Shown: piece by piece, positions 5,234-12,724 of the stretch | Numbering within the stretch: position 1 is the first letter of the stretch | Layout: each line of letters opens with the position of its first letter | IMG/VR virus record: IMGVR_UViG_2778261639_000008 | Coordinates: 1 to 15,090 of that record | Direction: 5' to 3' (one strand) | DNA length: 15,090 nt | DNA from: a virus | Taxonomy: Duplodnaviria > Heunggongvirae > Uroviricota > Caudoviricetes | Notes under the pieces: generated by a model | What the model saw: the letters and a program-made list of their open reading frames with translations, nothing else | What the model was told of the DNA's origin: nothing | The model's database searches: none | Position numbers and translations under genes: made by a program

Positions 5234-6224
5234 CGTTGATGCAATAAAACAATGGGAGATAACCCCGGAAGGTTATCTCCAGATTGATATCCCTATAGCC
5301 CGTCCGGGCGTACTGGTTTATGACCGCAATCGCGGTGATGCATTCACGGCAAAAGAGTACCGCTCAGCCGATGAATTGTTTAACCAGGACTCAATGAATA
5401 CCTTAATCGGCAAGCCTGTTACGGTGTCACATCCTCGTAATGGTCTGGTGACGTCAAAAAATTACCGGGCTGTCAGTGCTGGTGTGGTTACTGCCGTAAT
5501 GCGTCAGGGCGATGAATTGGTAGCCCGCGCTCTGGTTCAGGATGAGAGATCCATTCGCCTGATTCAGCAGGACAAAAGATTACGCGGGGCGTCGGCTGGC
5601 TACCAGTGTGACGAAAAGCCCAAACAAACGGGACGAGCCCCAGACGGGCAAGAGTTTGACACGGTGCAGAAGGGTATTAACTACAACCACCTGAGCATAG
5701 TGCGCAACCCACGGGTAAAGACAGCAACATTCAATCTGGACGGTGAACCGATGGAATTAGAAGAAGCGTTAGCCAAAATCGAACAACTGGAAGCGGATAA
5801 AAAAACGCTCACCAGCGACCTTAGCACGGCGCGTGGCGACTTGCTCAAAGCAAACAACCGCTTGGTAAATATGGATTCAGCCAGCAACGAAGCCTACGAG
5901 CGCGGCGTTACTGACGGTCGTCAGGAACATCAGCTTAAAGAAACAGCTAAACGACTGAACATCAATACCGACAGCCTGGGCGATATCAGTCTCGTTAAGC
6001 AGGCCATCATCCGTAAGGCAAATCCAGAAGTGAACATGGATAGCTGGAGCGATGAACAGGTTGATGTTGCGTTATCAATGGCGCTGGTGGCTTGCGGTAA
6101 AAAGTTTGAGCAAAAGCCGCGTAATCCACGCATCAACAACGATGAATCAGGTGCAGGCAAAAGTAATGATGCGCACAGTGATTATCAGTCCCGCATGTTT
6201 GGCAAAAAAGAGGCCGCAAAATAA
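5187..6224 (+). CDS. Putative scaffold / prohead core protein (DUF2213-like)
   Basis: Sits between the Mu F-like gene and the capsid gene. The C-terminal third is coiled-coil-like and charged (ELEEALAKIEQLEADKKTLTSDLSTARGDLLKANNRL), as in scaffolding proteins. The track ORF begins at 5076 inside the Mu F gene; the likely start is ATG 5187 or TTG 5211, the latter preceded by GGAG. Confidence 0.6.
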   Translation: MWKKRRKKLQQETQVNVDAIKQWEITPEGYLQIDIPIARPGVLVYDRNRGDAFTAKEYRSADELFNQDSMNTLIGKPVTVSHPRNGLVTSKNYRAVSAGVVTAVMRQGDELVARALVQDERSIRLIQQDKRLRGASAGYQCDEKPKQTGRAPDGQEFDTVQKGINYNHLSIVRNPRVKTATFNLDGEPMELEEALAKIEQLEADKKTLTSDLSTARGDLLKANNRLVNMDSASNEAYERGVTDGRQEHQLKETAKRLNINTDSLGDISLVKQAIIRKANPEVNMDSWSDEQVDVALSMALVACGKKFEQKPRNPRINNDESGAGKSNDAHSDYQSRMFGKKEAAK

Positions 6225-7015
6225 TGCAGACCACAATTAAAGGTGATTTTGACGCGGGATTGCCCGGTGATTTAGCTGTCCTGCCGTCTTTTCGTTCCTC
6301 TGCTCGCGTATCTTCCCGCCGCGCTGGTGGTGAAGTTGCGCCCGGTGATGCAGTAAAACTCACGTCAGGTAACGATTCGACCTGTGTTGCATTACCTGAT
6401 GGTGGTGATGTTACTGATGCCATCGGCATTGCGGTTACTGCACATTCCAACATGTCAGCCATGCCGGGATTTGGCAGTAACACCCGTATCGGCGTTGTCA
6501 CTATCAATTGCCCGATTGGTATCGTTGAAAATGGTCCGATCCGCGTAGCGGTAAAATCGGGTGAATCCCCGAAAGTGGGTGATTTGGCAATCCCGAAAGG
6601 CCGAAACGTCACTACCGGCTATATGGAATGGGGTGTTGCCAATTCTGGCGATAAAAGTCGTTTTCGCTTCGAATCAAACACTCAGCGCGGCGGTACAGCA
6701 ATTGTGATGGTTGTCGATGGTGAATTGCTGAGTGTGGGTTTTCCACATGAAACGCCTGTAATGGGTGTATCAGTTTCACCTAAAACCGCATCAAAGGCGG
6801 CTGGTGGTACTCAACAGCTAACACCAACCGTTACGCCATCGGGCGCAACAAATAAAGCAGTCACTTATCAGACCAGTAATGCAAATGTCGCAACTGTAGA
6901 CGCAAATGGCCTTGTCACTGTTAAAGCAGGGGCTACAACCGGGCAAACCGCGACAATTACGGTACGAACTGAAGACGGTGGTTTCACTGATACCGCTGTA
7001 ATTACTGTTAGCTAA
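6224..7015 (+). CDS. Capsid decoration-like protein with C-terminal bacterial Ig-like (Big_2) domain
   Basis: The C-terminal ~85 aa (VSVSPKTASKAAGGTQQLTPTVTPSGATNKAVTYQTSNANVATVDANGLVTVKAGATTGQTATITVRTEDGGFTDTAVITV) match the Big_2 Ig-like consensus closely. TAATG overlap with the upstream gene. Located between the scaffold and major capsid genes. Confidence 0.7.
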   Translation: MQTTIKGDFDAGLPGDLAVLPSFRSSARVSSRRAGGEVAPGDAVKLTSGNDSTCVALPDGGDVTDAIGIAVTAHSNMSAMPGFGSNTRIGVVTINCPIGIVENGPIRVAVKSGESPKVGDLAIPKGRNVTTGYMEWGVANSGDKSRFRFESNTQRGGTAIVMVVDGELLSVGFPHETPVMGVSVSPKTASKAAGGTQQLTPTVTPSGATNKAVTYQTSNANVATVDANGLVTVKAGATTGQTATITVRTEDGGFTDTAVITVS

Positions 7016-10325: not shown

Positions 10326-11684
10326 ATGGCGAATTTAAGCAGGCTTTTTAGTGTGAAAATTGGACGGCAAACAACAGCCGCCCAATATGGCGTTTTCGGT
10401 GTGGGGATTATCCTTGCACCGGGCGCAGCGTTTTTTGGTTTGAAGTATTCGACCTATGAAAGCGCAAAAGTAGAAAATTTCAAAGACCTGTACCGGGTTT
10501 ACACCAGTGCTGATGATGCGATTTCTGACGGCGTGAGTGGTGATAACCTGCTGGCGGTTCAGGCTTATTTCTCGCAGAGTCCATCACCAGACACACTCGT
10601 TGTAGGCGATTTTTCCGCAGCCTACAGCAAGGCCATGATTAAATTGACTGATGTTCCGGTTGTTGGTGCTCCAGCGGGCATAAAAGCGACCATTGGCTAT
10701 GTAAAGGGCGATGAATATCGTTATGCGAAATTTAACGGCACTGCATGGTCAGGAAGCACAGGGGTAGCGACTGATATCGTTGCTGATTCTGGCGCAGCAG
10801 GTCAGTTTCTTGTCGATGGGCGCATTGTTTATCTGGAAGGTGCGGAAGTCGTTCACAAATCATCTGTCGTACTGTCGGCGGCAGCTAGCCAGGCAATTGC
10901 AGCCATAAAGAACCAGTATAACAAGTTCTTCATGCTCATGACCCCATCACGCGACCTTTCAATTCAGAAAGTGATTGCTGACTGGACTGAATCGCAGATT
11001 GATAAAATGGCAGTATTTATTGATGACTATTCATCGCCAACATGGGCGACGGACAACATCACTAAATATATCTTTGAAAAAAATATTGCAGGTTCGTTTG
11101 CAGTATCAACCAAACGAGAAAAGAACTTCCTTGATGCTGCTCTGGCTGGTCGCTGTCTGGTTATGCAACCGGGCTCAGAAACATGGGCGCTTAAGACGCT
11201 TAATGCTGTACAAGCCGATGACTTTACCGAAACTGATTACCAGAAAATCAAGGCACTCAACGGTAACACGTTTGAGGATTACGGTTCCGGCATCACGGTA
11301 ACTTATCCGGGTACGTGTGGTGACGGTGAGTCGATTGAGGTTGTGCGCTTTGCTTACTGGCAGGCTGACCGCATGCAAAAAGACCTCGCAACGCTCTTTG
11401 TGAACCGTAACAAAGTTGGTCACGACATGCCGGGGTATGAAGTCGTTTGTAACAAAATGGAAAGCTCGCTTAAAGCAGGTCAGACTGCTGGCGGTATTCT
11501 GGAAAACTTTACCGACGAAAACGGAGATTATGTCCGTGGATATGAGGTTATCCGTCCAACAATGGCAGAAGTCAGCGCGACCCAGCGCATCAAAGGCGAC
11601 CTGACCGTTAAATTCAGATTCTATCTTCGCTACGCCATCAAGCATGTAGATGCTGTTGGTTCCGCACTGACCTACGGGATTTAA
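10326..11684 (+). CDS. Putative tail sheath protein
   Basis: 452-aa ORF immediately upstream of a ~140-aa tube-sized gene, a chaperone and the tape measure gene: the canonical contractile-tail order. Possibly DUF3383-type, not verified. Confidence 0.65.
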   Translation: MANLSRLFSVKIGRQTTAAQYGVFGVGIILAPGAAFFGLKYSTYESAKVENFKDLYRVYTSADDAISDGVSGDNLLAVQAYFSQSPSPDTLVVGDFSAAYSKAMIKLTDVPVVGAPAGIKATIGYVKGDEYRYAKFNGTAWSGSTGVATDIVADSGAAGQFLVDGRIVYLEGAEVVHKSSVVLSAAASQAIAAIKNQYNKFFMLMTPSRDLSIQKVIADWTESQIDKMAVFIDDYSSPTWATDNITKYIFEKNIAGSFAVSTKREKNFLDAALAGRCLVMQPGSETWALKTLNAVQADDFTETDYQKIKALNGNTFEDYGSGITVTYPGTCGDGESIEVVRFAYWQADRMQKDLATLFVNRNKVGHDMPGYEVVCNKMESSLKAGQTAGGILENFTDENGDYVRGYEVIRPTMAEVSATQRIKGDLTVKFRFYLRYAIKHVDAVGSALTYGI

Positions 11685-11686
11685 TT

Positions 11687-12115
11687 ATGTATTTAGGCAA
11701 TATGTCCTCAAAAGACTGGCTGATTACCGTAGGCGTTGTCCCGGTAATTGGCCTGGCGAAAGACAGCAACATCATCGTTGAAGTACCAGACGACCAGATT
11801 ACTGTTTCATCTGGCATCGGCGGTGACTGGTCATTTATTGAGAATCCTAGCGAGGAAGGCTCAGTAACATTCACCACGCAGCGTAATTCCCCGGTAAATA
11901 CCGCGCTGGCGCTGATGCAAAAAACAAAGGCCGTCATCCCTGTAACCGTAACCAATACGCGCAATCTTTCCGTGCACCGGCTGGGCTATGCGATGTTTGC
12001 CCGTCAGCCGTCTGATGGTGCAAATAACGGCGTCGGAGCGCAAACGCTGGAATGGAAACTCCTGACGGGTGAGCTTGATTCAACGATTCTTGGGGTGAAT
12101 TTAACCAATGGATGA
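11687..12115 (+). CDS. Putative tail tube protein
   Basis: 142-aa ORF between the sheath and chaperone genes; size and position fit a tube protein. Confidence 0.6.
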   Translation: MYLGNMSSKDWLITVGVVPVIGLAKDSNIIVEVPDDQITVSSGIGGDWSFIENPSEEGSVTFTTQRNSPVNTALALMQKTKAVIPVTVTNTRNLSVHRLGYAMFARQPSDGANNGVGAQTLEWKLLTGELDSTILGVNLTNG

Positions 12116-12593
12116 TTCAATCAAACACGTAGAAATTAACGGGCAAAAATACTGCATCATCCGTATGAGCGCCTTTGATGCAGTTCACTTCAACTTGCGT
12201 GTAGCTGAAATTCTGGCGAAACATGGTATCAGCCAGGTAGAAAGCATCCTTTCTATGTCGTCGAAAATCTTCGGTATGCTCAACCGCGAAGACCACGACG
12301 AATTGCTGTTTACGCTGCTTTCAAAGTCACGCGCCCAACTGGTGGATAACGGCGAATTTCTGGATTCTTGGGATGTAGTTAACACCAATTTCACCGCAGC
12401 AAACATTGCTGATGTGTATCTGGTGGCGCTTGAGTGCCTTAAATTGTCCATTCTTCCGGTAACAGCAGGGTTAAAAAAAAATATTGGGCTGGACACAGCG
12501 GCAACAATGCAGGGAGCCATGCGGCAACTGTTCAACGCCTTGCTGAAAACCTTGACCGAACCATCCGCACAGAGCTCGTCATCTGGCGAGTGA
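12108..12593 (+). CDS. Tail assembly chaperone, short (G-like) form
   Basis: 161-aa ORF immediately upstream of the tape measure gene, overlapping the tube gene stop. Contains the A9 slippery run at 12473-12481. Confidence 0.65.
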   Translation: MDDSIKHVEINGQKYCIIRMSAFDAVHFNLRVAEILAKHGISQVESILSMSSKIFGMLNREDHDELLFTLLSKSRAQLVDNGEFLDSWDVVNTNFTAANIADVYLVALECLKLSILPVTAGLKKNIGLDTAATMQGAMRQLFNALLKTLTEPSAQSSSSGE

Positions 12594-12724
12594 TTGAAAG
12601 CGGCCTGATTAGCTACGATGCCGTAGCGTCAGGCCGCGCCTCCTTCGATTCCATTATGAGAGCCTCCGCCGTTATCCAGTTCGATAACGCGGTTCAACAC
12701 GCGCTTAGTAAGGTGAAAAAATGA
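12108..12724 (+). CDS. Tail assembly chaperone, predicted -1 frameshift (GT-like) extended form
   Basis: The -1 frame is open from 12443 to the TGA at 12722-12724 with no start codon near its 5' end, and it is entered exactly at the A AAA AAA heptamer within the A9 run (12473-12481). The extension reads ...YWAGHSGNNAGSHAATVQRLAENLDRTIRTELVIWRVIESGLISYDAVASGRASFDSIMRASAVIQFDNAVQHALSKVKK and ends overlapping the tape measure ATG at 12721. Confidence 0.55.

Follow-up and report, generated by a model that had tools for sequence, protein, structure and literature searches.

We propose that a run of nine A inside the tail assembly chaperone gene is a real recoding site of the G/GT type, belonging to a contractile-tail prophage, and that a 205-aa GT fusion would be made through it in addition to the 161-aa chaperone G; we put the probability of this reading at roughly 85%. 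The window, that is the whole stretch of DNA that was analysed (15,090 nt), has at the level of sequence every feature by which the G/GT class is recognised. The case is built on the anatomy of the site, on the selection for coding that is visible in the -1 frame and on the conservation of both the run and the arrangement among relatives.

Gene content and matches to Pfam and PHROG families identify the window as the structural module of a contractile-tail prophage. Its upstream part encodes the large terminase, the portal, a head morphogenesis protein, a protease, an Ig-domain protein, the major capsid protein, and the neck and terminator proteins; these are followed by the genes for tail sheath, tail tube, chaperone and tape measure (Table 1), an order that gives the chaperone the placement expected of a G/GT pair. 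The ATG of the chaperone gene overlaps the end of the tube gene (ATGGATGA) and its stop is the TGA at 12591-12593. The protein matches the Pfam family PF21822, Phage_TAC_15 (E 1.1e-6, 29.7 bits, with a cutoff of 22), and also the PHROG tail assembly chaperone families 1613, 1688 and 1932; the Pfam match above cutoff and the position before the TMP_3 tape measure gene agree with the first-pass annotation, which had called the gene a tail assembly chaperone. On the + strand, no promoter- or terminator-like site was found between G and the tape measure gene.

Prophages of this type abound in enterobacterial genomes, and in Salmonella more than 1000 contigs carry chaperone sequences. No close relative turned up among 50,697 deposited phage genomes, where a megablast of the region and a tblastn with the fused protein gave no match; by its sheath protein phiEt88 comes nearest, at 28% identity. 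Two side observations concern the neighbourhood. A 263-aa protein encoded at 6224-7015, between the protease and the major capsid genes, has a C-terminal Ig-like domain (phrog_215) and may be a decoration or scaffold-related protein. A second A-rich run lies directly 5' of the tape measure ATG, at 12715-12721 (GTGAAAAAATGA); it has six A's here, eight in L086 (3113-3120) and seven in L087 (3108-3114), and it codes for the Lys-rich C-terminus of T and serves as the spacer after the tape measure Shine-Dalgarno.

Table 1. Positions of the features discussed, in coordinates of the window
Feature	Position	Strand	Basis
Tail sheath gene	10326-11684	+	DUF3383/E217_gp31_N, phrog_205; Pfam labels on relatives too
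Tail tube gene	11687-12115	+	phrog_280; Pfam labels on relatives too
Tail assembly chaperone gene (G, zero frame), 161 aa	12108-12593	+	ORF list, translation, Pfam PF21822
TAA closing the -1 frame upstream	12440-12442	+	sequence
A9 run, predicted shift site, A_AAA_AAA_AA	12473-12481	+	sequence (TTAAAAAAAAAT)
T segment in the -1 frame, 81 codons (KYWAGHSG...ALSKVKK) and TGA	12479-12724	+	translation
Dual-coding overlap: final 37 G codons in the zero frame, beginning of T in the -1 frame	12482-12593	+	diversity pattern
Shine-Dalgarno AAGGTG (12710-12715) and ATGA junction	12710-12724	+	sequence
Tape measure gene, 651 aa	12721-14676	+	Pfam PF20155 TMP_3, E 1.4e-35; many PHROG tape measure families

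The zero-frame codons at the run are GCA GGG TTA(12471-73) AAA AAA AAT ATT GGG, so that the heptamer A_AAA_AAA occupies 12473-12479. Between the TAA at 12440-12442 and the TGA at 12722-12724 the -1 frame is open for 93 codons (12443-12721), and its stop overlaps the tape measure ATG at 12721-12723 in the form ATGA. The upstream TAA cuts off a GTG at 12437, which in some relatives is taken by gene callers as the start of a 96-aa ORF, and the earliest ATG, GTG or TTG left in the frame is the GTG at 12590. The first-pass annotation had placed the nine A, the two stops and an extension of about 81 residues at exactly these positions, and had stated that the -1 frame has no start codon near its 5' end; all of these points were correct. 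In computed translation, residues 1-124 of G joined to the 81 residues of T give the 205-aa GT fusion (about 22.6 kDa), predicted to read ...TAGLKKK-YWAGHSG...SKVKK, with YWAGHSGNNAGSHAATVQR among its T-frame tryptic peptides. Within the stretch that would allow a productive -1 shift, canonical X_XXY_YYZ heptamers occur only inside the A-run.

Taken alone, a run of this kind is unremarkable, as at least one A9 was present in 78 of 200 shuffles of the 15 kb, and for this reason the weight of the case lies in its conservation in relatives. For the open frame of 93 codons, the probability from base composition is about 0.007.

Relatives were fetched by protein similarity. They comprise E. coli prophages, loci from Klebsiella, Raoultella, Buttiauxella and Leclercia, 36 IMG/VR contigs at 74-99% identity and eight more at 50-57%, and the most distant relative of the A9 clade is one Logan contig at 43% identity. 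The exhaustive phmmer search for remote homologues yielded 6 representatives only, and a scan of viral contigs with one remote homologue (P0121) gave no match. Every complete relative, whether at 99% identity or as distant as 24%, keeps the -1 frame open between the run and the tape measure start; stops in this frame downstream of the run, which the first-pass annotation had named as the observation that would speak against its proposal, were looked for in these complete relatives and none was found. The ATGA junction is present in all complete loci of the A9 clade except L025, in which a TAA lies just before the ATG. In four loci (L002, L031, L032 and L034) the -1 frame opens just 6 nt before the run, and L042 has its G stop 15 nt further upstream. 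The upstream limit given by L002 and L031, together with the earlier stop of L042, narrows the stretch in which a shift could take place to approximately 12467-12576. In the RefSeq records of CX12 and ECONIH4 only the 161-aa chaperone is annotated, and a gap of 127 nt is left before the tape measure gene. As a separate observation, five distinct stretches of the 1379-aa protein P0123 align with the chaperone at 27% identity, and this large protein may contain chaperone-like modules in repeat.

Concerning the run itself, it is an uninterrupted A9 in the same phase in 48 of the 51 clade loci, down to 43% identity. The other three have A7 (L041) or A8 (L089 and L090), and a base substitution within the run occurs in none. 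All 42 distinct G ORFs bearing A9 read TTA AAA AAA, but this set was chosen for an intact A9 and its uniformity is by construction, therefore the independent point is that the loci without A9 are pure length variants. At other conserved Lys columns AAA and AAG are mixed in ratios of 32:8, 24:16 and 19:23, other conserved Leu columns rarely use TTA, and in the alignment upstream third positions show ordinary wobble as far as the Gly codon that precedes TTA. It should be noted that the length of nine is constrained also in another way, the eighth and ninth A being fixed by a conserved Asn codon in the G frame and a conserved Lys codon in the T frame.

Length variants of the run were found in relatives (L041, L044, L045, L046, L089 and L090) and among proteins (P0001-P0009 and P0125-P0152). 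A7 gives fused ORFs of 204 aa, among others in Leclercia GCA_023744635.1, in Salmonella Bareilly ESH52590.1 (18 contigs) and in Klebsiella michiganensis; A10 gives fused ORFs of 205 aa in some public assemblies; and A8 gives proteins of 145 aa whose tail is out of frame, such as WP_000342770.1 of Salmonella arizonae, present on 28 contigs. For P0125 the A8 state was deduced from the protein tail, which matches the predicted A8 reading bar one residue. In the naturally fused ORFs, A7 or A10 allows uninterrupted reading from G into T, in line with the prediction. Such variants may be sequencing errors, decaying prophages or a real switch. One more fused protein, P0005 (197 aa), has a different appearance: a direct repeat, GCGGCAAC, occurs at 12498-12505 and 12521-12528, 23 nt apart, and the sequence of P0005 is what a deletion of the 23 nt separating the copies would give, fusing G to T (LKKNIGLDTAATVQRL...), a reconstruction made from the protein only.

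As we picture the process, most expression of the chaperone gene would end at the TGA at 12591-12593 and give the 161-aa G, and a fraction would move to the -1 frame at the A9 and give the 205-aa GT. A_AAA_AAA is a working ribosomal slippery heptamer, and by a first route two Lys-tRNAs would slip back by one base on it. By a second route RNA polymerase would insert a single additional A into the mRNA. The protein would be identical in either case, and we expect that ribosome and polymerase both contribute. By analogy with gpG/gpGT of lambda, G and GT would both cover the tape measure protein, the tube subunit would be brought in by the T domain, and both proteins would be absent from the virion.

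An indication of how much GT might be made comes from a reporter system in E. coli, in which cassettes from homologous magnesium chelatase genes yielded shifted product at 10% for seven A's, 40% for A_AAA_AAA_AA and 63% for 11 A's; the figure for HK97-like chaperone sites in that study was 6-7% (PMC3711429). Because the motif that gave 40% is identical to the one found here, the GT fraction may, if that value carries over, exceed the ratio of about 1 in 30 of lambda (PMC5009743).

We also searched the flanks of the run for elements that could stimulate a ribosomal shift. The RNA downstream folds no better than shuffled sequences (z-scores of -0.58 and -0.10), and a consensus fold of ten relatives reached -15 kcal/mol with an unfavourable covariation term of +0.52, so no conserved structure is apparent there; the downstream stimulatory structure for which the first-pass annotation had suggested a search is thus unsupported. 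On the upstream side, the alignment has wobble only, with no conserved hairpin, purine motif or Shine-Dalgarno-like element about 10-14 nt from the run. The same annotation had described the event as a programmed -1 frameshift at a slippery heptamer: the -1 extension is supported by the comparative data, whereas ribosomal slippage as the only mechanism is not, an A9 being equally a site of transcriptional slippage.

It is in fact plausible, at somewhat less than even odds, that the frame change is mainly due to RNA polymerase slipping on the T9 template. The transcripts would then carry A10 (for GT), A9 (for G) or A8 (for a truncated protein of 145 aa), each being translated normally by ribosomes, and the fusion product would be the same. 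Runs of nine A/T allow efficient transcriptional slippage in bacteria, and this is the length at which selection against runs appears (PMC5009743, PMC1088944); the run is of exactly nine in the loci counted above, down to the most distant of the clade, although this length could be a by-product of dual coding, given the Asn and Lys codons that fix its last two positions. The output of the reporter climbs with the length of the run, from A7 through A9 to A11, but A_AAA_AAA itself serves ribosomal slippage. The lack of a ribosomal stimulator near the run agrees with a role of the polymerase, and Shigella spa13 represents an enterobacterial precedent in which slippage lengthens the product until it reaches the start of spa32, the needle-length ruler gene; against this, polymerase slippage would also make the useless A8 product, and the C_CCT_TTT of the sister clade described below, with runs of four to seven T, fits only ribosomal slippage. 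That the GT fusion comes chiefly from RNA polymerase slippage on the conserved A9 in the enterobacterial prophage clade is a tentative reading, rather less likely than not.

Diversity and pN/pS were computed on 35 distinct sequences of relatives. In the G-only region upstream of the run, read in the zero frame, diversity at codon positions 1, 2 and 3 was 0.11, 0.05 and 0.38, with a pN/pS of 0.135. Beyond the G stop, in 12594-12721, the -1 frame gave 0.036, 0.056 and 0.128 with a pN/pS of 0.24, against pN/pS values of 2.5 in the zero frame and 0.83 in the +1 frame, both of which hold stops in 35 of 35 sequences. In the overlap, taken as 12482-12590, pN/pS was about 0.5 in the zero and in the -1 frame alike, and synonymous diversity was 0.12-0.13 vs 0.55 upstream, a drop that is the hallmark of dual coding. 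At all distances the identity of T keeps pace with that of the chaperone core or runs ahead of it, down to 45% core identity, with 60% vs 50% in L088 and 49% vs 45% in L047. At the protein level, conservation of the -1 frame (KKKYW[AS]G onward) starts at the run itself, well upstream of the GTG at 12590, and the zero-frame tail after the run is conserved too, up to a final SGE-stop. Judged by these comparative signals, the -1 frame in the apparently intergenic stretch is coding. Gene order, ATGA overlap and coding-type selection in the -1 ORF together bear out the arrangement that had been proposed from the single sequence, namely a G/GT-type pair upstream of the tape measure gene.

A coding -1 frame could also be translated on its own from an internal start, either the GTG at 12590, which would give 44 aa, or the equivalent in relatives of the GTG at 12437, which would give 96 aa. 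Gene callers do report such ORFs in relatives (44 aa in P0140; 96 aa in P0139 and P0149, both starting with MPE...), and 12590-12724 is present in the ORF list of the window. However, in the window the GTG at 12437 meets the TAA just two codons on, in L002, L031, L032 and L034 the frame opens just 6 nt upstream of the run, the conservation of the -1 frame begins upstream of GTG 12590, and by eye no clear Shine-Dalgarno precedes 12590, so that we consider this explanation very improbable.

Still less credible is the idea that the window is a frameshift mutant of a single fused chaperone gene, with A7 or A10 as the true state and A9 as an error or a sign of decay. Homopolymers do mutate easily and attract sequencing errors, and the fused ORFs of 204 or 205 aa occur in several assemblies, but 48 of 51 loci, drawn from many genera and independent assemblies, have A9, the tail of the zero frame is conserved to its SGE-stop, and in the protein database the 161-aa form is on thousands of contigs vs a few tens for the variants. 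Finally, a coincidence of an open frame and an A-run in a non-coding spacer would agree with the ordinary chance of one A9 per 15 kb, but the codon-position and pN/pS signals, a frame that stays open in relatives with essentially unrelated DNA and the conserved motif EL.IWR.I...SG of the T domain speak against it; the selection signals rule out a chance ORF.

The T extension, used as a query of 83 residues, matched no Pfam family at E values up to 10 and no PHROG family, and a sequence search of the PDB returned only noise (E >= 0.15), with no solved relative. An AlphaFold model of the natural fused homologue P0001, built on an alignment of 7 rows, had a mean pLDDT of 49.9 and was too poor for use. 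In the window the motif reads ELVIWRVIESG...SGRASFDSIM, and the extensions of a sister clade, formed by phiEt88 and the metagenomic relatives L048 and L091, carry E[LS]W[IV]WRPI...SG...[LV]MKLNAL. BLASTP of the window T against the phiEt88 extension is only marginal (E 0.02); what relates the extensions is the common motif and their position.

In the Erwinia phage phiEt88 (L043, NC_015295.1) a -1 ORF of 103 codons, at 2309-2620 of the locus, ends 5 nt before the tape measure gene and has C_CCT_TTT / T_TTT_TTC. RefSeq leaves a gap of 162 nt between gp17 (chaperone) and gp18 (tape measure) and does not annotate this ORF; this appears to be a GT frameshift missed in the annotation of a deposited phage. 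L048 and L091, at 24-27% identity, have -1 ORFs of 102 and 88 codons. All three have in common the heptamer C_CCT_TTT (Pro-Phe), which sits about five codons earlier than the A-run in the chaperone alignment; their T runs are 4, 6 and 7 long. The window and this clade thus share the Pfam chaperone family, the gene order and a -1 ORF (88-103 codons in the sister clade) reaching to the tape measure start, and they differ in the site, A9 in one and C_CCT_TTT in the other, with chaperone identities of just 20-27%. As the layout is shared and the T motif related but the heptamer is different, the sequence comparison indicates that the architecture is old and that the slip site has been replaced between clades.

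These results bear on annotation, because the records of a family widespread in Salmonella, Citrobacter, Klebsiella, E. coli and relatives leave a 127-nt "gap" at a place that encodes a well conserved domain of 81 residues, and the variant genomes carry misleading "chaperones" of 145, 204 or 205 aa. They also provide a natural pair for the study of how recoding sites evolve, with an A9 clade that could involve ribosome, polymerase or both and a C_CCT_TTT sister clade with a homologous T domain. Our literature search found no paper linking transcriptional slippage to a phage tail chaperone, or describing a frameshift in the prophage family of the window.

The frameshift of lambda gpG/gpGT and of other tailed-phage chaperones (Levin 1993; Xu, Hendrix, Duda 2004, 2013, 2014) is summarised in PMC5009743, as are the lambda GT ratio and the role of the two proteins in tape measure coating and tube recruitment. 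As in lambda, the gene lies between the tube and tape measure genes, the -1 extension has no start of its own and shares the N-terminal core with G, the slippery heptamer is in the overlap, and no stimulatory structure is needed. Unlike in lambda, the site is A_AAA_AAA_AA and not G_GGA_AAG, it lies further upstream, 37 codons before the G stop and not at the very end, the prophage has a contractile tail with a DUF3383-type sheath, and T is without a match to any Pfam family, that of lambda's T included. The site differs also from stimulated -1 frameshifting of the dnaX or IS3 type, whose downstream stem-loop or pseudoknot and upstream Shine-Dalgarno-like element were not found around the run.

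Programmed transcriptional slippage on nine to ten A/T is established for Thermus thermophilus dnaX and for Shigella mxiE and spa13 (PMC5009743, PMC1088944), and the chaperone gene shares with them a nine-base homopolymer in the sense strand of a coding region. It differs from these systems in that the run also forms an in-phase ribosomal heptamer, so that polymerase slippage is possible and not required. If the polymerase route is true, the A9 would be a mutation-prone switch, giving the G-only, GT-only and broken variants (A7, A8, A10) of public genomes, and the prophage would have a tail chaperone that uses transcriptional realignment. It would then be a direct counterpart of Shigella spa13/spa32, in which the extended spa13 product overlaps the start of a length-ruler gene just as the T segment of the chaperone adjoins the tape measure gene.
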